The notes below the pieces were generated by a model, which was not told the DNA's origin, did not search any database, and saw only the letters and a program-made list of their open reading frames with translations. The position numbers and the translations under genes are program-made. A stretch of DNA of 29,101 nt from Crenalkalicoccus sp. (lineage in GTDB: Bacteria > Pseudomonadota > Alphaproteobacteria > Acetobacterales > Acetobacteraceae): the NCBI GenBank assembly GCA_035640795.1, contig DASQVL010000712.1, positions 1 to 29,101 on the forward strand, written 5' to 3'. Every line of letters begins with the position of its first letter. Within the stretch, counting starts at the first letter, position 1. Shown piece after piece: positions 16,933 to 28,070 of this stretch.

Positions 16933-17637
16933 TCAATCGTCCAGGAATTTTGCGAATGCTTCGACCGGCTCGCGCGGGGATTGTAGCTGGTTTGCAGGCG
17001 CCTCCGGATCCACCCTTCCCAGAGCCATTCCACACACTATCATTTCCTGGTCGGGCACATTCAGCAATCTCCGAATAATCACATGATAGCTCTTGAACGC
17101 GGCCTGCGGACAGGTGTCAAGCCCGCGGCCCCGGGCCGAGATCATGATGTTCTGCATGAACATGCCAAGATCAAGCCAGCTGCCGTAACCCAACGTCCGA
17201 TCCAATGTGAAGATCATGCCGACCGGAGCACCGAAGAAGTCGTAGTTCCTGCGGTGCTGTCGTGCCGTCGCCTCTCGATCGCCTTTGACGATGCCGAGAA
17301 GCCCGTACAGCGCCCAGCCGATCTGTCGGCGCCGGTCGATATAGGGCGAGCGCCATTCCCGCGGGTAGTAGGCATATTCGGCCTCCGGCTCCTCGCCGCG
17401 GGCGTGGGATGCGGATATCTCGGCCGACAGCCGGTCGCGCGCCGCGCCTGTCACCACATACACCCGCCAGGGCTGGGTGTTGGTCATGCTCGGGGCACGG
17501 CTGGCCACCGCTAGGATCTCCCGTATGGTCGTGGCCGAAACCGGATCGGGCAGGAAACCGCGGACGCTGCGGCGCGAAGTGATGACCGAGTTGACCAGCT
17601 GCGCGGCGCTCGGCTCCGCCTCCGGGAACGGCCTCAC
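16933..17637 (-). CDS. Nitroreductase-family flavoprotein, about 234 aa
   Basis: SRRSVRGF, RAPSMTNTQPW, FFGAP, DLGMFMQNIM, TCPQAA; GTG start 8 nt after GGAG, beside the MaoC stop. Confidence 0.9.
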   Translation of the reverse strand: MRPFPEAEPSAAQLVNSVITSRRSVRGFLPDPVSATTIREILAVASRAPSMTNTQPWRVYVVTGAARDRLSAEISASHARGEEPEAEYAYYPREWRSPYIDRRRQIGWALYGLLGIVKGDREATARQHRRNYDFFGAPVGMIFTLDRTLGYGSWLDLGMFMQNIMISARGRGLDTCPQAAFKSYHVIIRRLLNVPDQEMIVCGMALGRVDPEAPANQLQSPREPVEAFAKFLDD

Positions 17638-17639
17638 CG

Positions 17640-18158
17640 CTAATACTCCGCCATGTCGTCCACGGCATGTCCTCGCTTCGGCACCAGCATCGTGCGCTCG
17701 AAGGTCATGAAGACGGTGCCGTCGGCCTTTTTCCCCGTGGTCCTGACGGTGACGATCCCCTGGGTCGGGCGTTTCGCCGACTCGCGCTTGGAGAGAACCT
17801 CCGACTCGGCATAGAGCGTATCGCCAATGAAGACCGGCGCGGTCAGGCGGATGTCGTTCCAGCCGAGGTTGCCGATGGCCTTCTGGCTGAGATCGCTGAC
17901 GCTCATACCCACGACGACCGACAAGGTGAGGCAACTATTCACCAGCGGCCGCTTGAACTCGGACTTGGCCGCGAAGGCGAAGTCAAAGTGCAGCGGATGA
18001 GTGTTCATCGTCAGCAAGGTGAACCAGGTATTGTCCGTCTCCGATATCGTCCGGCCGGGCCGATGTTCGTAGATGTCGCCTGGCTCGAAGTCCTCATAAT
18101 AGCGACCGAAGCTTTCACGCCAACGCTGTGGCCCGATCTGCTTCGCTATCCCGACCAT
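17640..18158 (-). CDS. MaoC-family (R)-specific enoyl-CoA hydratase, itaconyl-/mesaconyl-CoA hydratase-like, 172 aa
   Basis: GRYYEDFEPGDIYEHRPGRTI..TDN.WF.LLTMNTHPLHFD, NLGW..IRL..PVF.GDTLYAESEV, SKRES..RPTQGIV. Confidence 0.9.
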   Translation of the reverse strand: MVGIAKQIGPQRWRESFGRYYEDFEPGDIYEHRPGRTISETDNTWFTLLTMNTHPLHFDFAFAAKSEFKRPLVNSCLTLSVVVGMSVSDLSQKAIGNLGWNDIRLTAPVFIGDTLYAESEVLSKRESAKRPTQGIVTVRTTGKKADGTVFMTFERTMLVPKRGHAVDDMAEY

Positions 18159-19327
18159 GATCCCTCTCCTGATGCTGGATTTTGCCTCGTCTCGCCGCGG
18201 CGGTCTGTGCCTGTCGCAAGGGCGGTCCGCAGTTCGTCCGTATGCTCGCCAAGCAACGGCTCCCGCAGGCGAGGCTGCGGCGGCTCCTCGCGGAAGCGTA
18301 TGGCCGGGGCGATATGGCGGCGACCGGTCTCGTCCGTCAGGACCATCCCGCGCGCCAGCAGGTTCGGATCCCTGAAGGCTTCGGGCAAGGTGCTTACCGG
18401 AGCAAAGCACACATCCAGACTACCGAGCCAATCCAGCCAGTCCTGCAGGTCCCGTTGGCGAAAAGTCTCCTGCAGGAAGTCCACCACCGGCTGCTGGTGC
18501 GCGCCAGGTCCGCGGGTGCAGAGTGCCTCAAGGTCCGGCCGATCGAGTGCTCGCAGGAGGGTGTGCACGAACTTCTCCTCCTGCCCTGCAAGAACGAGCT
18601 GTCGGCCATCCCGCGTATCATAGATGCGATAGAAGGCGGATCCGCCGGTGGTCCGTTCCTCCTTGACGATGGGCTGGCGGTCCTCCGCGAAGGTCGGGCC
18701 CACGACATTGGCGCAGGCCGCAACCAGCGCGTCATGCATGGCAAGGTCGAGATAATCGCCGCGGCCCGTGCTGGTGCGCCGGAGCAGCGCCATCAGCACG
18801 CCGGAAAGGCCTTGCAGGGCGCTGATGATGTCGGCGGCCGGGATGCCGGGGATGGCCGGCCTTCCGTCGTCGCCGAGGGTCAGGCCGAGTACGCCGCTCA
18901 CCGCCTCCAGCGCCAGGTCGTGCGCCGGCCGGTTGCGGTAGGGGCCGTGCTGGCCGAAGGCGCTGATGGAGGCATAGACCAAGCCCGGATTGCGGGCGCT
19001 GACCTGCTCATAGCCGACGCCGAGCCGTGCCGCGACGCCGGGGCGGAAGGATTCGACGATGACATCAGCAGTGTCGCAGAGGCGGAGCAGCGCTTCCCTG
19101 TCCGCATCCTGCTTCAGGTCGAGGACGAGGCTCTTCTTGCCGCGATTGGTGTTGCGGAAGAAGACGCTGGTCCGTCCGTCCGGCGGCCCGATGCGCCGGC
19201 CCGGATCGCCTTCGCCTGGCGGCTCGACCTTGATCACCTCGGCACCATGGTCGGCCAGCGCCATGGTCAGGTAGGGCCCCGGCAGGAACCAGGAGAGATC
19301 GATGACGCGGAGGCCAGCGAGCTTCAT
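18146..19327 (-). CDS. Class III CoA-transferase (CaiB/BaiF) family, racemase-like AHD variant, 393 aa
   Basis: LRVIDLSWFLPGP, NRGKKS..LDLK, ESFRPGVAARLG, SISAFGQ.GP, AHD, AAD conserved Asp; ATGA overlap. Confidence 0.9.
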   Translation of the reverse strand: MKLAGLRVIDLSWFLPGPYLTMALADHGAEVIKVEPPGEGDPGRRIGPPDGRTSVFFRNTNRGKKSLVLDLKQDADREALLRLCDTADVIVESFRPGVAARLGVGYEQVSARNPGLVYASISAFGQHGPYRNRPAHDLALEAVSGVLGLTLGDDGRPAIPGIPAADIISALQGLSGVLMALLRRTSTGRGDYLDLAMHDALVAACANVVGPTFAEDRQPIVKEERTTGGSAFYRIYDTRDGRQLVLAGQEEKFVHTLLRALDRPDLEALCTRGPGAHQQPVVDFLQETFRQRDLQDWLDWLGSLDVCFAPVSTLPEAFRDPNLLARGMVLTDETGRRHIAPAIRFREEPPQPRLREPLLGEHTDELRTALATGTDRRGETRQNPASGEGSWSG

Positions 19328-20493
19328 GCCGCGCTGCCGGCCGGCGTGGCCGGCTCCTCCTGCTGCAGCAGCGCAGCATTGTCGGCGCCGAGCGGTGCGC
19401 AGGCCGATTGCTCGGGGCGCACACCGTTGAACTTCAGTGGGTTCGCCAGCACCTTCATCTCCGGTTTCGCCGGATGCGGGACGCTGCGCACCAGGCCGTT
19501 CGCGCGGACGAAGCTGCTGTCGAGCGCCTCCGGCAGGTCGTAGACCGGGGCGACCGGCAGCTGTCCCCCCAGGACCTTCAGCCAGTGTCCGGTGGGCGCC
19601 TTGCGCAGCTCGGCATCGAGCACTGCTGTCAGCGCCTCGCGATTGTCGTGGCGCGCCGCGAAGCTGGCGAAGCGCGGATCCTCCGGCAGGTCCGGCCGCC
19701 CGATCCCGTCGCAGAAGGCGCGCCAGAACTTCTCCGTCATGCACATGACGAAGATCCATCCGTCCGCGGTCGGGAAGGTTTGCACCGGCACGAGCGACAG
19801 ATGGGAGCTGCGGGAGAGGCGGCGCGAAGCGTCTCCCTCGTTCAGGTACCACATGGCGGGGTAAGAGAGCTGGTGCATGGCCACATCGAACAGGCAAGTG
19901 TCCACGTCACAGCCGATGCCGGTCTGCCTGGCCCGCAGCACAGCGCTCAGCAGGCCGATCATGCCGGTCATGCCAGTCATAGTATCGACCAGGGAGGCGC
20001 CGACCCGCGCCGGCGGCCCGTCCGGCTCGCCGGTCAGGCTCATCAGGCCGACCTCGGCCTGCATCAGGTAGTCATAGCCTGGCCAGGCGGCGCGCTCATT
20101 GTCGCGGCCATAGGCGGAGATGTGCAGGCAGACCACGGCGGGATTCACCCGCTTCAGCGCCGGGTAGTCGAGTCCGAGCCGGCCGGGAAGGTTGCCGCGC
20201 AGGTTGTTCACCACGGCGTCGGCCGTGCGCACCAGCGCCTCGAGCTGCCGGCGCCCTTCGGACGATTTGATGTCGAGCGTGACGCTCCGCTTGCCAAGAT
20301 TCCAGGCCTGGAAATACTGGCTGTCGGCAGGGCCCAGCATATGCGGCCCGACATGCCGCGCGGGATCGCCGCCCGTCTCGGCATTCTCGATCTTGATCAC
20401 CTCCGCGCCGAGCTCGGCGAGGAGCATAGTGCCATAGGGCGCCGCACCGAATTGCTCGATGCTGACGACCCGCATGCCCTGAAGCGGCTTCAC
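19324..20493 (-). CDS. Class III CoA-transferase (CaiB/BaiF), 389 aa
   Basis: GMRVVSIEQFGAAPYG, NLGKRSVTLD, SAYG, PGYD, LVD conserved Asp; GTG start overlapping the ACAD stop. Confidence 0.92.
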   Translation of the reverse strand: MKPLQGMRVVSIEQFGAAPYGTMLLAELGAEVIKIENAETGGDPARHVGPHMLGPADSQYFQAWNLGKRSVTLDIKSSEGRRQLEALVRTADAVVNNLRGNLPGRLGLDYPALKRVNPAVVCLHISAYGRDNERAAWPGYDYLMQAEVGLMSLTGEPDGPPARVGASLVDTMTGMTGMIGLLSAVLRARQTGIGCDVDTCLFDVAMHQLSYPAMWYLNEGDASRRLSRSSHLSLVPVQTFPTADGWIFVMCMTEKFWRAFCDGIGRPDLPEDPRFASFAARHDNREALTAVLDAELRKAPTGHWLKVLGGQLPVAPVYDLPEALDSSFVRANGLVRSVPHPAKPEMKVLANPLKFNGVRPEQSACAPLGADNAALLQQEEPATPAGSAA

Positions 20494-21665
20494 GACACGG
20501 GATTCCGCTTGATGAGCTGGCGGGCGATGATGATGCGCTGCATCTCGTTGGTCCCCTCCCCGATGCAGGTGAGTGGCGCGTCGCGGTAGAGCCGCTCGAT
20601 GTCGAATTCCTTGGAATAGCCATAGGCGCCGTGGATGCGCATCGACTCGATGCTGTTCTCCAGCGCGGCCTCGGAGGCGAAGTATTTCGCCATCCCGGCC
20701 TCCATGTCGCAGCGCTCCCCGCGGTCGAAGGCGGTGGCGGCGTCGAGCGTCAGCAGCCGGGCGGCGCGGGCCCGGGTCGCCATTTCGCCGAGCTTCAACT
20801 GGATCGCCTGGTGCTCACAGATGGGCTTGCCGAAGGTCCTGCGGATCTGGGCGTATTCGGTGGCGAGCCGCAGCGCGCCCTCGGCGATGCCGACGCCGCG
20901 CGAGGCGACGTTGATGCGGCCCAGCTCGAGCCCGCCGGTCGCCTGGTAGAAGCCCTGGCCCTCGACGCCACCGATCAGGTGGTCCGCCGGGATGCGGTAA
21001 TCCTCGAAGATCAGCTCGCCGCTGTCGATCGACTTGTAGCCGAGCTTCTCCAACTTGCGGCCGACCCGGAAGCCCGCCTGCTTGGGGGCGATGAACAGGC
21101 TCATACCCTTGTGGCGCTGTGCGGCATGTGGGTCGGTCTTGACCAGCAGGGCCACGCAATTGCCCTCGATGCCGTTGGAGATCCAGGTCTTCACGCCGTT
21201 GATGACGTAGTGGTCGCCATCGCGCCGGGCCGTCATGCGAATGGCCTGCAGGTCGGTGCCCGCATCCGGTTCGGTCAGCGCCAGGCCGCCACGGACCTCG
21301 CCGGTCGCCAGGCGCGGCAGCCAGGCCTGCTTCTGCGCCTCGGTGCCGAATTTCTCGATCGCCAGCGCCAGCATCAGATGCGAGTTGAAGATGCCGGTGA
21401 TCGACATCCAGACCGCGGAGATCCGCATGACGATCTCGGCATAGATGCGCGCCGGCAGGCCGAGGCCGCCATACTCCTGCCCAATCGTCGCGCCGAACAG
21501 GCCGAGCTCCTTCATCTGCTCGACGATTGGCGTCGGGTAGCGGTCGGCGTGGTCGTATTCCTTGACGACCGGCTTCACTTCCCGCTCGATCCAGCGATCG
21601 ATCGCCTGGATGAGCTGCGCCGCGTCGTCATCATTCCACTCTTGGTGCTTAGTGACCAGGTTCAT
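20490..21665 (-). CDS. Acyl-CoA dehydrogenase, 391 aa
   Basis: GLALTEPDAGTD, INGVKTWISNG, KLGYK, GRINVA, FGKPI..HQAIQ, QS.RIHGAYGY-type motif, IGEGTNEMQR; RBS AAGGAGG. Confidence 0.95.
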   Translation of the reverse strand: MNLVTKHQEWNDDDAAQLIQAIDRWIEREVKPVVKEYDHADRYPTPIVEQMKELGLFGATIGQEYGGLGLPARIYAEIVMRISAVWMSITGIFNSHLMLALAIEKFGTEAQKQAWLPRLATGEVRGGLALTEPDAGTDLQAIRMTARRDGDHYVINGVKTWISNGIEGNCVALLVKTDPHAAQRHKGMSLFIAPKQAGFRVGRKLEKLGYKSIDSGELIFEDYRIPADHLIGGVEGQGFYQATGGLELGRINVASRGVGIAEGALRLATEYAQIRRTFGKPICEHQAIQLKLGEMATRARAARLLTLDAATAFDRGERCDMEAGMAKYFASEAALENSIESMRIHGAYGYSKEFDIERLYRDAPLTCIGEGTNEMQRIIIARQLIKRNPVS

Positions 21666-21713
21666 CGCGGCAGGCCCCTCCTTCGCTCTGGCCGTTGCTA
21701 TCGCATGGCGGTG

Positions 21714-21725
21714 TTGTACGGACAA
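21714..21725. promoter_or_regulatory. Putative HutC/GntR operator 1
   Basis: TTGTACGGACAA, quasi-palindromic, 49 bp upstream of the ACAD start. Confidence 0.65.
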
Positions 21726-21815
21726 GGCATATTTGAGCGGACATGTTGCCGCGATGCGAGCTGCTCTCCTCAATGATGCTTGACATCGGCCCGAGAACCA
21801 ATCAAACGGAGCCGC

Positions 21816-21829
21816 CTTGTACTGACAAG
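21816..21829. promoter_or_regulatory. Putative HutC/GntR operator 2
   Basis: CTTGTACTGACAAG, just upstream of the gntR start. Confidence 0.65.
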
Positions 21830-21856
21830 TCCGGAACGGCATGGCGCCGTGGAGTG

Positions 21857-22633
21857 ATGCCGCGGATGGGCGAGCGCAGCGCAGGCAGGGAGCGGGCGAT
21901 CGGCAGCGACACGCCGCCCCTGTATCGGACGGTTATCGACGCGCTGCGGCAGGAGATCCTGGCCGGGACCTATGCCGTCGGCGACAGGCTGCCGACCGAG
22001 GACGCCCTCTGCCGCCGCTTCGGGTGCAGCCGGCACACCATCCGCGAGGCGTTGCGGCAGCTCCGGGAGGAGGGGCTGGTGGCCTCGCGCCAAGGCGCCG
22101 GCACGACGGTCCTTCGCCGCGGCGCCGCCCCGCCGCTCTACACCTCCTCGGTCTCCTCCGTGGAGGAATTGCTGCAATACGCGACGGAGGCTCGCTACGA
22201 GGTCGACAAGAGCGGGCTCGTCGTGACGGACGCCGCGCTGGCCGAGCGGATCGGCTGCCGGGTCGGCCAACGCTGGCTCCGCGTCGAGGGCTTCCGGACC
22301 GTCGCCGGGCAGGACGCGCCGATCTGCTGGACCGAGGTGTTCGTTCTCTCGGATTATGCAGGCATTGCGCTGATGATCGGTCGCAAGCCGGGCACCATCT
22401 ATTCCTGGATCGAGGAGATGTATGGGGTGCGCATCGGTGAGGTGCAGCAGGTCCTGCGCGCAGAGCCGATGCCCGAGGCCCTGGCCGCCGAGCTCGGCTG
22501 CCCGCTCGGCAGCATGGCGATCAGCATCCGCCGCTCCTATCGCCTGGTTGGCGGCGAGCTGGTGGAGGTCGCCTTCAACCTCCATCCGGCCGACCGCTTC
22601 ACCTACGAGGTGACGCTCCGGCGGCAAGGCTGA
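21857..22633 (+). CDS. GntR-family regulator, HutC subfamily (wHTH plus UTRA), about 258 aa
   Basis: LY..V...LRQEILAG.Y..GDRLPTE..LC.RFG.SR.TIREAL..L..EG....QG.GT; C-terminal UTRA-like domain; alternative ATG at 21866. Confidence 0.93.
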   Translation: MPRMGERSAGRERAIGSDTPPLYRTVIDALRQEILAGTYAVGDRLPTEDALCRRFGCSRHTIREALRQLREEGLVASRQGAGTTVLRRGAAPPLYTSSVSSVEELLQYATEARYEVDKSGLVVTDAALAERIGCRVGQRWLRVEGFRTVAGQDAPICWTEVFVLSDYAGIALMIGRKPGTIYSWIEEMYGVRIGEVQQVLRAEPMPEALAAELGCPLGSMAISIRRSYRLVGGELVEVAFNLHPADRFTYEVTLRRQG

Positions 22634-22640
22634 GCGCCGC

Positions 22641-23681
22641 CTACTGCACCTCGATCTTCGCGTCCCGCACCACACGCCGCCATCGGGTCAGCTCCGCCTC
22701 GATCAATTCCCGGAACCGTGCGGCCGGCTCAGGTGGTGCGACCTCGACGTTCTGAGCGGCGAAGCGTTCAGCGATGGCAGGCTCGGCGAGCAGCTTGCCG
22801 AGTTCCCGGTTCCAGTACTCCACAACCTCCGGCGGCGTTGCCGCGGCGCCGAGCAGGCCGGTCCAGGCGCGAACCTCCATGCCGACGATCTCCGGCACGC
22901 CGAGTTCCGAGATGGCTGGGATCTCCGGCGCCAAGGACGACCGGCGCTGCTGCATCACTGCGAGGGCACGCACCTGGCCGCCGCGGACCTGGGGCAGGGA
23001 GGTGCTCATGGCATCGATCATCAGGGCGACGCGGCCGCTGGCGACATCCATCAGGGCGGCGCCGCTGCCGCGATAGGGCACGGTCTCCATCCGCGTGCCG
23101 GTCTGCAACATGAACTGCTCGGATGCGAGATGCGTCACCGTGCCCGTACCAGGGGTGGCCATGGCATAGCGCCCTGCCGGTGCCGCGCGGAGCACCTGCA
23201 CGACATCGGCGAGGGTCTTTGCCGGGAAGTCAGGGCTGCATACCAGCAAGTAGCCGGTCCAGCCCATCAGCAGGATCGGCGCGAGGTCGCGCAAGGGATC
23301 GTAGCCGGGGTTGGCGGTGAGCACCGGGTTCACCGCGATGGGTGACACGGAGCTCAGCAGCAGCGTGTAGCCATCAGGTGGCGCCTGCATCACGGCGCGG
23401 ATGGCGATGCCGCCGCTGGCGCCGGCCCGGTTGTCAACAACCCAGGTGTGGCCCAGGCGTCGCTGGATCTCCTCGGCCGCCAGCCGCGCCGTGAGATCGG
23501 CCAGGTTGCCTGGCGGAAAGGGAATGATGAGGCGCACCGGCCGCGCTGGATAGTCCTGCGCCGAGGTCCGGCCGGCGAGGCCGGCAGCGGTGAGCATCCC
23601 GGCAACGACACGCCGTCGTCCGGCCGTCGGGGCCGCTGCATGGCGGGGCGGCGGGCCCTCAGTCTGGGGTTCCCTGCGCAC
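22641..23681 (-). CDS. Bug/TctC tripartite tricarboxylate transporter substrate-binding protein, about 346 aa
   Basis: YPARPVRLIIPFPPG..D..AR, VVDNRAGASG, PPDGYTLL, VPYRGSG.A..D; GTG start after GGGAGGAG RBS. Confidence 0.93.
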   Translation of the reverse strand: MRREPQTEGPPPRHAAAPTAGRRRVVAGMLTAAGLAGRTSAQDYPARPVRLIIPFPPGNLADLTARLAAEEIQRRLGHTWVVDNRAGASGGIAIRAVMQAPPDGYTLLLSSVSPIAVNPVLTANPGYDPLRDLAPILLMGWTGYLLVCSPDFPAKTLADVVQVLRAAPAGRYAMATPGTGTVTHLASEQFMLQTGTRMETVPYRGSGAALMDVASGRVALMIDAMSTSLPQVRGGQVRALAVMQQRRSSLAPEIPAISELGVPEIVGMEVRAWTGLLGAAATPPEVVEYWNRELGKLLAEPAIAERFAAQNVEVAPPEPAARFRELIEAELTRWRRVVRDAKIEVQ

Positions 23682-23731
23682 TTGCTCCTCCCTTCTCGGC
23701 GTTCCGGCGGCGCATTCAGAGCGCAACCTAT

Positions 23732-23743
23732 TTGTACGATCAA
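23732..23743. promoter_or_regulatory. Weaker putative HutC/GntR operator 4
   Basis: TTGTACGATCAA, 10/12 identical to operator 1, 51 bp upstream of the Bug start. Confidence 0.4.
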
Positions 23744-23883
23744 GTTGGAATTGACCGGGATCAGTCGCATGCCGCATCTCGCCCGACGCGAGACGCCGGA
23801 TGCGGCTTCCGGCCGCAAAAGCCCCGCCGACCGCTCGCCTGCTTCGACCGAAATCTTGACGAGGGTTTGGCGCTTAATCCAGT

Positions 23884-23895
23884 GTGTCCGGACAA
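23884..23895. promoter_or_regulatory. Putative HutC/GntR operator 3
   Basis: GTGTCCGGACAA with perfect TGTCCGGACA palindrome, 12 bp before ATG 23908. Confidence 0.6.
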
Positions 23896-23907
23896 ATAGG
23901 TGAGGCG

Positions 23908-25110
23908 ATGCAGCCAGACACGACCCTGCAGGACGGAGCGGCTCCCGGACCGTTGGCGGGCATCCGTGTCCTCGATCTCGCCACCTTCATCGCCGCACCC
24001 TATGCCGCCACGCTGATGGCCGAGTTCGGCGCTGACGTGGTGAAGGTGGAACTGCCCGGCAGCGGCGATCCGACCCGGCGCTTCGGCAGCATGACGAGTT
24101 GCGGCGACAGCCTGCCCTGGCTGAGCGAAGCGCGGAACAAGCGCTCCATCGCGCTCGACCTGCGCACGGCGGAGGGGGCCGCCACCCTGAAGCGCCTCGT
24201 CGCCGTGGCCGATGTGGTCTGCGAGAATTTTCAGCCGGGCACGCTCGAATCCTGGGGGCTCGGCTGGGACGTGCTGCGGGGCGTCAATCCGCGCCTGGTC
24301 ATGCTGCGCGTGTCTGGCTATGGGCAAACCGGCCCGTACAGCGGGCGGCCCGGCTTCGGGCGTATCGCCAACGCCTTCGGCGGCATCTCCTTCCTCGCTG
24401 GCGACCCTGAAGGACCACCGGTGACTCCCGGCTCTGCAACCCTTGCCGATTACATGTCCGGCCTCTACGGCGTGATCGGCGTGTTGATGGCGTTGCGCGC
24501 GCGCGACGCCGCCGGGGCGCCTGGCCAGGTGGTGGATATCGGACTCTACGAAAGCGTCTTCCGGATCCTGGACGAACTCGCCCCCGCCTATGACCTGTTC
24601 GGCAAGGTACGGCAGCGCATGGGCGCGGCGACCGTGAACGTCGTGCCGCACAGCCACTATCCGACCGGCGACGGACACTGGATCGCCATCGCCTGCACCA
24701 GCGACAAGATCTTCGCCAGGCTCTGCGCGGCCATGGAGCGGCCCGAACTGGCTGGACCCGACCGGTTCGCCACCATCGCACAACGTGAGGCCGCGCGGGC
24801 AGAGGTCGATGGCATCGTTACCGACTGGACTCGCGGCATGACGCGCGATGCGGTGCTCGCGGCCTGCGAACGCGCCCAGGTGCCTTGCGGACCGGTCTAC
24901 GCCATCGACGAGATCTTCGAGGATCCCCATTACGCGGCCCGCGGCAATATCGCGCATGTCTTCGAGCCACGCCTGGGCCGTACCCTGGCGGTGCCGGCAC
25001 CGGTGCCACGGCTCACCGGAACGCCGGGCGCCATTCGCTGGCTGGGGCCATCCCTCGGCGCGCAGGCCGCGGAGATCCTGTCGGAGTGGCTGGGCGAGAA
25101 GCGGACATGA
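23908..25110 (+). CDS. Class III CoA-transferase (CaiB/BaiF), GFG variant, 400 aa
   Basis: PLAGIRVLDLATFIAAP, RNKRSIALDLR, ENFQPG, SGYGQTGP, PGFG, LAD conserved Asp; RBS AGGTGAGG. Confidence 0.93.
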   Translation: MQPDTTLQDGAAPGPLAGIRVLDLATFIAAPYAATLMAEFGADVVKVELPGSGDPTRRFGSMTSCGDSLPWLSEARNKRSIALDLRTAEGAATLKRLVAVADVVCENFQPGTLESWGLGWDVLRGVNPRLVMLRVSGYGQTGPYSGRPGFGRIANAFGGISFLAGDPEGPPVTPGSATLADYMSGLYGVIGVLMALRARDAAGAPGQVVDIGLYESVFRILDELAPAYDLFGKVRQRMGAATVNVVPHSHYPTGDGHWIAIACTSDKIFARLCAAMERPELAGPDRFATIAQREAARAEVDGIVTDWTRGMTRDAVLAACERAQVPCGPVYAIDEIFEDPHYAARGNIAHVFEPRLGRTLAVPAPVPRLTGTPGAIRWLGPSLGAQAAEILSEWLGEKRT

Positions 25111-26012
25111 CGAGCGGACCGAACCGAACCTTCCTCTTCGCGCCGGGCGACCATGCACGGCGCGTCGAGAAGGCGCTGACGATCAATGCCGACGCCGTGA
25201 TCCTCGATCTCGAAGATGCCGTGGCGCTCTCCGCCAAGGAAGCGACGCGGGAGGCGGTGGTGGCCGCGTTGCAAAAGCCGCGGCGTGGACGTGCCTATGT
25301 TCGCGTGAACGGCTTTGCCACGCCGTTCTGCTTCGGCGACCTCGAGGCCGTGATCGGCCCCTGGCTCGATGGCATTGTGCTGCCGATGCTAGAGGATCCG
25401 GCCCAGCTCACCGCCGTGGACTGGGCGATGGCGGCGCTGGAGCGGCAGCGCGGCCTGCCAGAGCGCAGCCTGGACCTGATGCCGATCATCGAGACGGGGC
25501 GCGGCATGGCGGGGTGCCGTGGGCTCGCTGCCGCTGCCGCGGCACTCGGCGGCAGGATCAGACGGCTCGCCTTCGGTGCGGGCGACTACACGCTGGATCT
25601 CGGCATCACCTGGACGTCCGGTGAAGCGGAGCTCAACGCCGCACGGAGCGAGGTGGTGCTGGCCAGCCGCTGTGCCGAGCTGGAGGCGCCGATCGACACG
25701 GTCTTCACCGGCCTGCACGAGTCGGAGGCCTTCGCCAGTTCCTGTCGGCTCGGCGCAGCGATGGGGTTCCAAGGAAAGCTTTGCATCCATCCCGACCAGC
25801 TTTCGGTTGCCAACGCCGCCTTCGGCCCGACCGCAAGCGAGGTGGAGCGGGCACGGCGGATTGTCGCCGCCTTCGCCGAGGCGGAGGCAAGGGGCGTGGC
25901 TTCCGTCCAGGTCGACGGCCGCTTCGTGGACTACCCTATCGCTGCGCGGGCTCGGCGCACTGTCGAGCTCGCCAACCTGATCGAGTCCGCCGCGAGGCAT
26001 GCTCCAGCCTGA
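25107..26012 (+). CDS. CitE/malyl-/citramalyl-CoA lyase family protein, 301 aa
   Basis: RTFLFAPG, VILDLEDAV..SAK, YVRVN, PIIET, FGAGDY, GFQGK.CIHP.Q, G.FVD.P; ATGA overlap. Confidence 0.92.
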   Translation: MTSGPNRTFLFAPGDHARRVEKALTINADAVILDLEDAVALSAKEATREAVVAALQKPRRGRAYVRVNGFATPFCFGDLEAVIGPWLDGIVLPMLEDPAQLTAVDWAMAALERQRGLPERSLDLMPIIETGRGMAGCRGLAAAAAALGGRIRRLAFGAGDYTLDLGITWTSGEAELNAARSEVVLASRCAELEAPIDTVFTGLHESEAFASSCRLGAAMGFQGKLCIHPDQLSVANAAFGPTASEVERARRIVAAFAEAEARGVASVQVDGRFVDYPIAARARRTVELANLIESAARHAPA

Positions 26013-26130: not shown

Positions 26131-26553
26131 TCAGCGGTGGTCGGGGGTCGTGAGCGGGTCGTCCCCCACGTCGACGACGAAGATGGCGAGCAGACGCGCC
26201 GACCGCGTGTCGCTGGCGTTTTCGCTTACCCTGTGGTGCGCGCCGGGCGGCTCGGACCAGCCCTCGCCGGGCCGGTAGACCCGCACCGGTTCATCGTCCA
26301 CCTGGCTCCGGATCTCCCCCTCCAGCACGTAAGCGTAGATGAAGGCCGATCCGGCATGGCGGTGCGGGACGGACCTGGCACTCGGTGGGTACTCGACCAC
26401 CACGGCAACCAGGCGCTTGCCAGGGGCATTGGGGATGGGCTGGTCGGCGGCAAGCGTGACGGTCTCGTGCCGGGGTTCGGGCTGTGCCACCCCGGGGGCT
26501 GGCGCGGAAAGTGCCGCAACGAGGGCCGCGCCCCAGAGGATTGCACGTCGCAT
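26131..26553 (-). CDS. Secreted cupin-domain protein, 140 aa
   Basis: Signal peptide (..APGVA); PHRHAGSAFIYAYVLEG and GEGWSEPPGAHH cupin motifs; GGAG RBS. Confidence 0.9.
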   Translation of the reverse strand: MRRAILWGAALVAALSAPAPGVAQPEPRHETVTLAADQPIPNAPGKRLVAVVVEYPPSARSVPHRHAGSAFIYAYVLEGEIRSQVDDEPVRVYRPGEGWSEPPGAHHRVSENASDTRSARLLAIFVVDVGDDPLTTPDHR

Positions 26554-26642
26554 CGGGACCACTCCGGCTGTTGGCGACGGCTGAAAACTGGGCCGCATCG
26601 CGGCCGGCAAACAGTGTCAAGACCGGCAGATCCGGCTGTACC

Positions 26643-28070
26643 GTGGATGGCGTGGCGACCCATTTTCCCATCGACGTCGACCGCGCCAGGAAGGCGCCAC
26701 TGGCCGCGCAGATCCACCGGGCCATCCGGGACGCCATTGTCGACGGGCGGATCGCCCCCGGTGCGAGGCTGCCCTCCTGGCGTGACCTGGCGGCCCAGCT
26801 CGGCGTGGCCCGCGGCACCGTGCAGGCGGCCTACCAACGCCTGGTGGACGAGCAATACGCCGTCGGCCTGGGGGCCGCGGGTACTCGGGTCGCCGATCGT
26901 CCGCCGTCGTCTTCGATGTCCGGCTGGTCACCGGACGCGGCGCCATTGCCGGAGCTCTTCCACAATTTCGGGACGGCGCCCCTACCGTTCCAACTGGGCG
27001 TGCCCTCCCAGGATGCCTTTCCCTTCGTGCTGTGGTCGCGCCTGCTCACGCGCGAGGCCCGCCGTGCTGCTGCGGCGCCGGTCGGGTACCTGGACCCGCG
27101 TGGCGATCCGGAGCTGCGGAAGGAGATCGCGGCCTACCTGGCCATAGCGCGCGGCATCCGGTGCACGCCGTCCCAGATCCTTGTGACAGCCGGCTTCTCC
27201 GGCGCCCTGGGCCTGGCCCTGCACGGTCTCCGGCTGGAAGGGCAGGCCGCCTGGATGGAGGATCCGGGCTATCCGCTCTCGCGCACCGCGCTCGGCCTGT
27301 CCGGCATGACGGTATCAGCAGTCCCGGTGGATGCTGAGGGCCTGGACGTCGCCACCGGAGTCCGATGCGCCGGGGGCGCTGCGCTGGCGGTGGTCACGCC
27401 GGGCCAGCAAGCGCCGCTCGGGGCGACGATGTCGCTCCGCCGGCGGCTTGCCCTGCTCGACTGGGCGCGGCGGAACGGCGCCCGGGTGATCGAGGACGAC
27501 TACCTGGGCGAGCTGCAGCTGAAGGGCCGGGCGGCACCGGCCCTCGCTTCCCTCGACCAGGACGGGCGGGTGCTGCACGTCGGCAGCTTCAGCAAGACCA
27601 TCAGCCCGGCGCTGCGCCTCGGGTTCCTCGTGGCGCCGCCGGAACTGGCCCGCGCCTTTGGCGACCTGACCGCCTGCCTGGCGCCCGCGCCGGCCGCGCC
27701 CGTGCAGCGCGCGGTGGCGGCGTTCCTGCGGGAGGGGCACTACCTCCGCCATCTCCGCCGCATGAAGCGGCTCTACGCGGCCCGCCGGGAGGTCCTGGTC
27801 GGCTGCCTGAGGGAGTTGGCGGCAGACGTGCTGAGGGTGGAAGCGGCCGCCGCCGGCCTGGCCGTGGTGGTCTCGCTGCCCGAGCATGCGGCGGACGTGG
27901 AAATCGCCTCGAGCGCCCTGCCCTTCGGCCTGGCACCCCGGCCACTGTCGCCCTGGTATCTGCAGTCTCCCGCACGGCGGGGGCTGCTGCTCGGCGTGAC
28001 CAACCTCGATGAGAGGCGACTACCGGCTGACTGCCGGCGGCTGGCGGAACTGGCACGACGGCACTCATGA
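26643..28070 (+). CDS. MocR/GabR-type PLP-dependent GntR regulator, about 475 aa
   Basis: wHTH GARLPSWRDLAAQLGVARGTV; aminotransferase-like domain with EDPGY, VTP..Q.PLG, IEDDY, SFSKT.SPALRLG; start GTG 26643 or 26652. Confidence 0.93.
   Translation: MDGVATHFPIDVDRARKAPLAAQIHRAIRDAIVDGRIAPGARLPSWRDLAAQLGVARGTVQAAYQRLVDEQYAVGLGAAGTRVADRPPSSSMSGWSPDAAPLPELFHNFGTAPLPFQLGVPSQDAFPFVLWSRLLTREARRAAAAPVGYLDPRGDPELRKEIAAYLAIARGIRCTPSQILVTAGFSGALGLALHGLRLEGQAAWMEDPGYPLSRTALGLSGMTVSAVPVDAEGLDVATGVRCAGGAALAVVTPGQQAPLGATMSLRRRLALLDWARRNGARVIEDDYLGELQLKGRAAPALASLDQDGRVLHVGSFSKTISPALRLGFLVAPPELARAFGDLTACLAPAPAAPVQRAVAAFLREGHYLRHLRRMKRLYAARREVLVGCLRELAADVLRVEAAAAGLAVVVSLPEHAADVEIASSALPFGLAPRPLSPWYLQSPARRGLLLGVTNLDERRLPADCRRLAELARRHS

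Follow-up and report, generated by a model that had tools for sequence, protein, structure and literature searches.

We analysed a 29,101-nucleotide (nt) stretch of DNA, hereafter the window, that makes up positions 1 to 29,101 of contig DASQVL010000712.1 (assembly GCA_035640795.1, Crenalkalicoccus sp.) and carries a cluster of nine genes that probably serve the uptake and CoA-dependent breakdown of a branched dicarboxylate. The host is an uncultured soil bacterium represented by a metagenome-assembled genome (MAG) of ~4.5 Mb that is 84% complete and consists of 835 contigs. Gene families were assigned by Pfam and NCBIfam scans, and the chosen start codons were identical to the public gene calls for all nine proteins (two independent contigs with the same DNA). 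Every gene named in a preliminary description of this DNA was recovered by Pfam at the position given there. The genes are as follows.

16933-17637, minus strand: nitroreductase (NfnB-like, FMN), 234 aa; PF00881, E 4.7e-34
17640-18158, minus strand: MaoC hydratase, RipB/Ich- and mesaconyl-CoA-hydratase-like, single-hotdog, 172 aa; PF19315 MC_hydratase 92 bits, PF01575 83 bits
18146-19327, minus strand: CoAT_B, family III paralogue, 393 aa; PF02515, 344 bits
19324-20493, minus strand: CoAT_A, family III CoA-transferase, 389 aa; PF02515, 371 bits
20490-21665, minus strand: acyl-CoA dehydrogenase (ACAD), 391 aa; all three ACAD Pfam domains
21866-22633, plus strand: GntR+UTRA regulator, HutC subfamily, 255 aa; PF00392 78.6 bits, PF07702 55.5 bits
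22641-23681, minus strand: TctC/Bug binding protein, 346 aa; PF03401, 186 bits
23908-25110, plus strand: CoAT_C, family III CoA-transferase, 400 aa; PF02515, 391 bits
25107-26012, plus strand: CitE-like lyase, HpcH/HpaI fold, 301 aa; PF03328, 142 bits

These genes fall into four units. Unit 1 runs on the minus strand from 21665 down to 16933, with the ACAD gene first and the genes for CoAT_A, CoAT_B, MaoC and the nitroreductase behind it. Unit 2 is the regulator gene alone (21866-22633, plus strand), divergent from ACAD; unit 3 is the Bug gene alone (minus strand, 23681 down to 22641); and unit 4, divergent from the Bug gene, comprises CoAT_C and the CitE-like lyase (23908-26012, plus strand). 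The gene junctions are operon-like, with 4-nt overlaps at ACAD/CoAT_A (GTGA), CoAT_A/CoAT_B (ATGA) and CoAT_C/lyase (ATGA), a 13-nt overlap at CoAT_B/MaoC, and a 2-nt gap from the MaoC stop to the nitroreductase gene. Because both flanks are unrelated (a halogenase and an aryl-polyene-type cluster upstream, a secreted cupin and a MocR regulator downstream), the cluster limits of 16933-26012 drawn in the preliminary description are correct.

We scanned the window for a candidate operator, the 12-bp palindrome TTGT-N4-ACAA, using the pattern TTGTNNNNACAA with one mismatch allowed. Four matches, to which no strand is assigned, were obtained.

21714-21725: operator O1, TTGTACGGACAA, 49 nt upstream of the ACAD start
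21817-21828: operator O2, TTGTACTGACAA, 38 nt upstream of the regulator start
23732-23743: operator O3, TTGTACGATCAA, one mismatch, 51 nt upstream of the Bug start
23884-23895: operator O4, GTGTCCGGACAA, one mismatch, 13 nt upstream of the CoAT_C start

Shuffling gave a mean of 1.79 matches to TTGTNNNNACAA for the whole 29-kb window, against the four found, all of which lie within the two divergent intergenic regions, one per transcription unit. In ~20 loci, the orthologous operon likewise has TTGTCCGGACAA or TTGTACGGACAA just ahead of its first gene. These loci span alpha-, beta- and gammaproteobacteria, and the carriers include Bradyrhizobium, Stellaceae, Thalassobaculum, Kaistia, Steroidobacteraceae, Chromatiales and Variovorax. 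In Variovorax the palindrome is additionally found ahead of a separately placed CoA-ester lyase gene, and on the Aminobacter plasmid pUSP2 it precedes all three pieces of a cluster split by insertion sequences (IS). It was not found in loci without the regulator (e.g. Reyranella).

The regulator has the N-terminal GntR winged helix and C-terminal UTRA domain of the HutC subfamily, and its orthologues (32-59% identity) flank the module in many loci. Because the same palindrome is present at the four units here and at the ~20 orthologous loci, we treat the cluster as one HutC-type regulon, as the preliminary description had supposed from the gene arrangement. This phylogenetic footprinting is evidence that the regulator would control all four units. 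It presumably acts as a repressor, since this is the usual mode of the HutC subfamily, and we infer that it regulates its own gene via O2. The regulator and Bug genes converge at 22633-22641 with stop codons 7 nt apart, which leaves no room for separate terminators; a scan for sigma-70 and terminator consensus sequences was uninformative in the high-GC DNA of the window.

To follow the module across genomes, we searched species-representative genomes with CoAT_B and fetched 80 loci, assembled a second set of 12 loci anchored on ACAD, and drew 300 genomes evenly from the host's class for co-occurrence. The sampled genomes are related and not independent, so the counts are indications and not statistics. 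The 80 loci come mostly from Alphaproteobacteria (Reyranella and relatives), and also from Burkholderiales and Gammaproteobacteria. Carriers available in culture include Variovorax paradoxus VAI-C (INQ48_34310-34350), Kaistia terrae DSM 21341, Reyranella massiliensis 521, Tistrella mobilis and Aminobacter sp. MSH1. The recurring backbone is the ACAD-CoAT_A-CoAT_B trio, often with MaoC at either end and commonly with the regulator. The CitE-like lyase adjoins the trio in some loci; CoAT_C adjoins the module in just one case, a Chromatiales MAG with the full set. Around the 12 ACAD anchors, MaoC was adjacent in 10 and each of the paralogues CoAT_A and CoAT_B in 7.

Orthologues of ACAD (at least 62% identity) were present in 46 of the 300 class genomes (~15%). 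The CitE-like lyase had orthologues in 10 genomes, all 10 of them ACAD-positive, and in these the two genes were mostly unlinked and adjacent in only one. CoAT_C orthologues were present in 24 genomes, 15 of which were ACAD-positive. CoAT_C and the lyase are a separable two-gene unit. The lyase of other loci is either CitE-like or HMG-CoA-lyase-like, and a protein of the latter family replaces it in Aminobacter, a Bradyrhizobium MAG and one further locus (L119). Elsewhere the module is also found together with MmgE/PrpD genes and with TRAP or Bug transporters.

Some of these loci had features of their own. On plasmid pUSP2 of Aminobacter sp. MSH1 (L106), IS5 and IS3 split the module into its three pieces and a glutathione S-transferase gene follows CoAT_B. 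The CoAT_B orthologue on Tistrella mobilis pTM2 (L107:9001-10096) is annotated as two overlapping coding sequences, which suggests a frameshift or pseudogene. A polysaccharide-deacetylase-family gene paired with an MmgE/PrpD-family gene recurs (L107:1033-6390, L069:3806-6100, L080:5298-7600, L108:1349-6400 and L120:7081-9380), often ahead of the ACAD module (Tistrella, Kaistia, Hoeflea and the alphaproteobacterial genome G212); in one instance, in Variovorax, its neighbours are an amidase, a CoA-transferase and a crotonase. This pair may be a feeder step that yields the diacid. MmgE/PrpD hits on Paraburkholderia chromids lay in unrelated contexts, where we found no itaconate cluster, and MmgE/PrpD loci in Variovorax and Roseomonas held other gene sets and gave no pointer to the substrate.

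The host genome is rich in Bug and family III paralogues, and the nine genes might then be chance neighbours that form no functional unit. Matches to TctC number ~99, against 3 to TctA, an extreme expansion of the Bug type for a MAG of this size and completeness, so a nearby Bug gene is unremarkable by itself. What links the Bug gene to the cluster is the presence of operator sites in its promoter region. It has the usual orphan arrangement, with neither TctA nor TctB among the called genes of the window and the three TctA matches elsewhere in the genome. Family III matches number ~22 over 4.49 Mb, from which ~0.04 would be expected in 9 kb; three were seen, which is clustering beyond chance. 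Together with the start/stop codon overlaps within the operons, the operator copies ahead of all four units that are kept across classes, and the conserved synteny and genome-level co-occurrence, this makes a chance assembly extremely improbable.

ACAD is the most conserved member of the module, with 62-87% identity across related loci. Its catalytic residue, Glu374 in a GEGTNE motif, is invariant in 53 sequences; we take the place of this motif from MCAD and SCAD, where (Y/G)EGTxE is C-terminal. The closest solved relative is Mycobacterium smegmatis FadE3 (4iv6, 420 bits). Two other assignments were rejected: a 3-sulfinopropionyl-CoA desulfinase, given that ACAD has the catalytic Glu and scores 222 where the cut-off is 600, and a glutaryl-CoA dehydrogenase, for which the score fell under the cut-off.

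The MaoC protein scored 239.4 bits against RipB_Ich (NF038241; cut-off 340), aligned over profile positions 7-175 of 175, and is the only strong RipB-like match in the host genome. Its best Pfam model is mesaconyl-CoA hydratase, and its best solved relative is a beta-methylmalyl-CoA dehydratase (8hgn). The lyase scored 141.8 and, in a second scan, 142.6 bits against RipC_Ccl (NF038242; cut-off 375) and 198.6 bits against citE (TIGR01588; cut-off 443). Its solved relatives, at 100-137 bits, are 1sgj, malyl-CoA lyases, CLYBL, P. aeruginosa Ccl (PA0883) and RipC. It falls in the CitE/malyl-CoA-lyase/CLYBL group, and P. aeruginosa Ccl and Yersinia pestis RipC are not its nearest solved relatives. 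A role as a citrate lyase subunit was rejected, since the genes called in the region include none of the citD or citF type.

The three CoA-transferase-family proteins each match PF02515 over profile positions 1-366 (344-391 bits) and share only 31-34% pairwise identity. All three keep the nucleophilic Asp (Asp170 in CoAT_A, Asp166 in CoAT_B and the aligned Asp in CoAT_C), in a column that we take to be that of Asp169 of formyl-CoA transferase, and this residue is invariant among the CoAT_A and CoAT_B orthologues. CoAT_A has a transferase-type Tyr140-Asp141 in addition to Asp170, conserved in 56-57 of 57 sequences, and adjoins CoAT_B and ACAD in most related loci. CoAT_C, whose best NCBIfam match is succinate-glutarate CoA-transferase (274 bits against a cut-off of 750), has Phe in the column 30 residues before the Asp, where CoAT_A has Tyr.

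CoAT_B has neither Tyr nor Phe in this column; instead it has His136, which together with Asp166 and Glu250 is invariant in 79 of 79 orthologues. The five best solved transferase sequences (including 10uh, SUGCT, 4ed9 and YfdE) have Tyr opposite His136. Aligned through the genome's own orthologue of Mycobacterium tuberculosis alpha-methylacyl-CoA racemase (MCR), the three CoAT_B residues fall in the columns of MCR His126, Asp156 and Glu241, which sit in GHDINY, LVGD and IEPQF. These are the active-site residues of MCR that were mutated in earlier work (PMC10967716). The canonical MCR orthologue is encoded on another contig (L098:1426-2553, contig C155) and scores 430 bits to the M. tuberculosis enzyme; among 18 family III paralogue segments of the genome, only it and CoAT_B have His in this column.

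The nitroreductase has 3gr3 as its best solved relative (253 bits), followed by the NfnB-type structures 7dp0 and 2wzv. It is 55% identical to a nitroreductase adjoining the module on Aminobacter pUSP2, where the order is HMG-CoA-lyase, nitroreductase, then ACAD. NfnB-like orthologues were common (77 of the 300 class genomes) and 28 of these genomes also had ACAD, yet the two genes were adjacent in only one of the 28 (G212), inside the operon between CoAT_B and MaoC. Altogether the nitroreductase adjoins the module in only 4 loci; in the Bradyrhizobium MAG it lies ~5 kb away, beside two lyase genes. It is therefore a recurrent but rare recruit, a facultative add-on and not a defining or conserved part of the module. 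We would guess that it reduces the methylene group of itaconate. In two genomes (L124:7950-12254 in G142; also G292), an orthologue (55%) lies in another neighbourhood of CoA-pathway genes, where it is transcribed divergently from a CoAT_C-like transferase (52%) and a different ACAD (32%).

Outside the cluster, a small cupin with a signal-peptide-like N-terminus is encoded divergently from a MocR-type (GntR plus aminotransferase) regulator at 26131-28070 of the window. We considered whether this cupin (26131-26553) is the counterpart of a cupin that accompanies the module in Variovorax and rejected this, as the two are without similarity; it goes with the MocR regulator. Positions 1-2000 of the window have a GC content of 0.53, against 0.60-0.74 over the remainder, and the contig may be chimeric at this left end, far from the cluster.

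On balance, the regulon probably serves, under its single HutC-type repressor, to take up a small branched 1,4-dicarboxylate and degrade it as CoA esters, the likeliest substrates being methylsuccinate, itaconate, mesaconate and citramalate. In the proposed scheme, the Bug protein would pass the acid on to a TctAB channel from another part of the genome, and CoAT_A would activate it with succinyl-CoA as donor. CoAT_B, with its family III fold and racemase-type His, would epimerise or isomerise the CoA ester and so make both isomers usable. ACAD would then yield a mesaconyl-CoA-type enoyl-CoA, the RipB/Mch-like MaoC would hydrate it, and the CitE-like lyase would cleave the resulting 3-hydroxyacyl-CoA to acetyl-CoA and pyruvate if the CoA is on C4, or to propionyl-CoA and glyoxylate if it is on C1. 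CoAT_C, co-translated with the lyase, might activate hydroxy or unsaturated acids directly, and the nitroreductase would be a facultative addition.

The hydratase, the group to which the lyase belongs, the company of MmgE/PrpD and transporter genes, and the logic of known pathways point to a substituted succinate, most simply of the C5 family. All characterised substrates of MmgE/PrpD proteins share a 1,4-dicarboxylate backbone, and the methylsuccinate/itaconate pathway consists of Ict, Mcd, Ich and Ccl (PMC12290011). The family assignments agree with that pathway, in keeping with the transferase, dehydrogenase, hydratase and lyase logic first suggested for this cluster. The preliminary description had further taken the three transferases and the nitroreductase as an argument for a new substrate. 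This part was not sustained: a transferase-plus-lyase unit like that of CoAT_C has a precedent in Cupriavidus necator, where it is induced mainly by mesaconate (PMC13491972), and the nitroreductase is not conserved. With the CoAT_C-lyase unit separable and the nitroreductase occasional, neither extra is in itself a reason to expect a novel compound. The cluster could act on ordinary methylsuccinate, itaconate or mesaconate, with the enzyme set and the regulator as the undescribed part.

Several observations weigh against this reading. No enzyme of the cluster reaches an NCBIfam equivalog cut-off for the characterised itaconate, mesaconate or glutarate enzymes, so the substrate is assigned by family resemblance and context only. 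Several loci have no CoAT_A, CoAT_B or lyase nearby, and the sequence was found only in metagenome DNA runs from soil, a digester and a mine, with no RNA run found. CoAT_B scores 203 bits to a transferase against 146 to Far and 131 to MCR, its Asp loop is transferase-like, and the Glu250 column is occupied by Asp or Asn in solved transferases; since several of them have Asp there, only His136 discriminates and Glu250 does not. An MCR-type racemase, moreover, cannot act on the C4 ester used by Pseudomonas, so the epimerase idea implies either a C1 ester or a different reaction.

From its residues, the odds are about even that CoAT_B is an epimerase or isomerase, one that removes the alpha-proton from a CoA ester and does not transfer CoA. 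The epimerisation step proposed in the preliminary description has thereby gained some support, from an invariant His136 that takes the place of MCR His126 in a column occupied by Tyr in solved transferases. For a reaction of the MCR type the substituent must be alpha to the thioester, which would imply the C1 ester and hence beta-methylmalyl-CoA, propionyl-CoA and glyoxylate. The RipB likeness of the hydratase points the opposite way, to a C4 route.

Alternatively, CoAT_A and CoAT_B could be the two subunits of a heteromeric transferase, as in the benzylsuccinate CoA-transferase BbsEF or Chloroflexus SmtAB, or two transferases of differing acid specificity, with no epimerase step. The two genes are adjacent, overlap by ATGA and are co-conserved in most loci; overall CoAT_B resembles transferases and retains the nucleophilic Asp; of the two BbsEF chains it is the better match to one and CoAT_A to the other; and BbsEF followed by the ACAD BbsG (benzylsuccinyl-CoA dehydrogenase) provides a precedent for the gene logic (PMC10818641). 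We nevertheless consider this somewhat unlikely. CoAT_B-like genes (51-67% identity) that keep the invariant His stand alone in housekeeping contexts beside kup, mutS or ilvC, so CoAT_A is not an obligate partner, and some ACAD loci carry CoAT_A without CoAT_B. In addition, every solved transferase sequence aligned has Tyr where CoAT_B has His. ThnP was considered as a precedent for CoAT_B and rejected because it is a family I enzyme (PMC11659651).

The same regulon and chemistry might also act on another substituted dicarboxylate, such as 3-methylglutarate, 3-hydroxy-3-methylglutarate, an ethyl- or alkylsuccinate, or a diacid from a nitrogen-containing precursor, with the C5 acids as side substrates at most. 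The shortfall from every equivalog cut-off would fit such a substrate, as would the lyase swap for an HMG-CoA-lyase family protein in Aminobacter, the Bradyrhizobium MAG and L119, and an ACAD whose nearest solved relative is the uncharacterised mycobacterial FadE3. The deacetylase-like hydrolase and MmgE/PrpD pair often found ahead of the module likewise suggests a feeder pathway. This alternative is unlikely, however, as the closest families to the hydratase are clearly the itaconyl/mesaconyl-CoA hydratases, and the window offers a binding protein for the acid itself but no feeder genes. The lyase swap is also compatible with a C5 substrate, because citramalyl-CoA lyases of both the CitE and the HMG-CoA-lyase type are known from Chloroflexus enzymes.

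A bolder version, which we regard as quite unlikely, is that the module is an independent and widespread route for both enantiomers of methylsuccinate or other 2-alkylsuccinates. CoAT_B, derived from a transferase and with a convergent racemase-type His, would epimerise 2-substituted succinyl-C1-CoA, and the pathway would proceed from methylsuccinyl-C1-CoA through mesaconyl-C1-CoA and beta-methylmalyl-CoA to propionyl-CoA and glyoxylate, with the NfnB-like enzyme reducing the methylene of itaconate (or of its CoA ester) as a feed. CoAT_B would then do on the CoA ester what the Pseudomonas MmgE/PrpD isomerase does on the free acid, and the route would be a catabolic mirror of a segment of the ethylmalonyl-CoA pathway.

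A literature search aimed at the gene set found no paper on a module of ACAD, two family III genes and MaoC, and none of the module-carrying genera was found in the supplements of PMC12290011. The module is genuine and conserved. It represents an uncharacterised form of the branched-dicarboxylate CoA pathway, with a well-defined operator and one unusual paralogue; its substrate and the role of CoAT_B are predictions. The known account of methylsuccinate and itaconate catabolism is recent and limited to the gene sets of Pseudomonas/Cupriavidus and Yersinia; if our reading is true, the same chemistry is carried out by different enzyme lineages with a conserved repressor and operator of their own. 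With the module in ~15% of the sampled class genomes, and also in beta- and gammaproteobacteria, many soil bacteria whose genes bear generic CaiB/BaiF, acyl-CoA dehydrogenase and MaoC labels could then be credited with the use of branched dicarboxylates. For the transferase branch of family III, the racemase-like paralogue would represent a new type of reaction. The conserved 12-bp operator offers a handle for regulon prediction and biosensor design.

Among the known systems closest to the cluster are PA0878-PA0883 of P. aeruginosa and operon1 of C. necator (Ich, Mcd, Msi, Ict, Ccl), which, like it, combine a family III CoA-transferase, an ACAD, a hydratase and a CitE-type lyase; in those systems the set acts on a branched C5 dicarboxylate, as is probable here (PMC12290011, PMC13491972). 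A Bug/TTT binding-protein gene adjoins the C. necator cluster as well. Given the common reaction logic and several shared protein families (PMC12290011), the cluster might simply be an orthologue of these or of the Yersinia itaconate-methylsuccinate genes, with nothing new; this is very unlikely. A HutC-type regulator with the TTGT-N4-ACAA operator takes the place of the LysR-type ItcR (PMC13491972), and there are two extra family III paralogues, one with the racemase-type His. The called genes at 16.9-28 kb include no MmgE/PrpD isomerase, and the window as a whole, by its called genes, has neither this isomerase nor a LysR regulator or a TRAP transporter; MmgE/PrpD genes occur on other contigs of the host genome. 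The hydratase (239 bits against 340) and the lyase (142 against 375) fall below the RipB_Ich and RipC_Ccl cut-offs, and the closest solved relatives of the lyase are other than P. aeruginosa Ccl and Y. pestis RipC.

Y. pestis RipABC has a CitE-like lyase and a hydratase to whose profile ours aligns in full. No equivalog cut-off is reached, and the genes are therefore not an orthologue set of the Yersinia RipBC genes; of the Pseudomonas enzymes, Ccl was compared. The transferases also differ, as RipA, the itaconate CoA-transferase, is a family I enzyme and those here belong to family III. RipABC lacks an ACAD and would thus be unable to use methylsuccinate.

CoAT_B shares the family III fold with M. 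tuberculosis MCR and human AMACR, and places its His, Asp and Glu in the same columns as MCR. It lacks the GHDINY and LNLVGD contexts of the racemases and is globally closer to the transferases, and a canonical MCR orthologue exists separately in the host genome. Should CoAT_B prove to be a 2-methyl epimerase, a C1 route like that of the ethylmalonyl-CoA pathway is implied. That pathway and the methylaspartate cycle (Mcd, Mch, Mcl; haloarchaeal Mct) have in common with it the dehydrogenation of methylsuccinyl-C1-CoA, the hydration of mesaconyl-C1-CoA and the cleavage of beta-methylmalyl-CoA. Their enzymes serve assimilation, with a double-hotdog fold in Mch and an N-terminal extension in Mcd, and the scores obtained here are far below the cut-offs of the haloarchaeal equivalogs.

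BbsEF and BbsG likewise combine two adjacent family III paralogues with an ACAD for a 2-substituted succinate. The similarity of CoAT_A and CoAT_B to BbsEF is low (83-111 bits), and the Bbs pathway goes on with a crotonase, a short-chain dehydrogenase (SDR) and a thiolase and not with a MaoC hydratase and CitE lyase. Finally, operon3 of C. necator (Ict3-Ccl2), a mesaconate/citramalate unit, resembles the CoAT_C-CitE pair in gene layout, as a family III CoA-transferase paired with a CitE-like lyase (PMC13491972). The difference is that the pair described here shares its operator and regulator with the ACAD operon.

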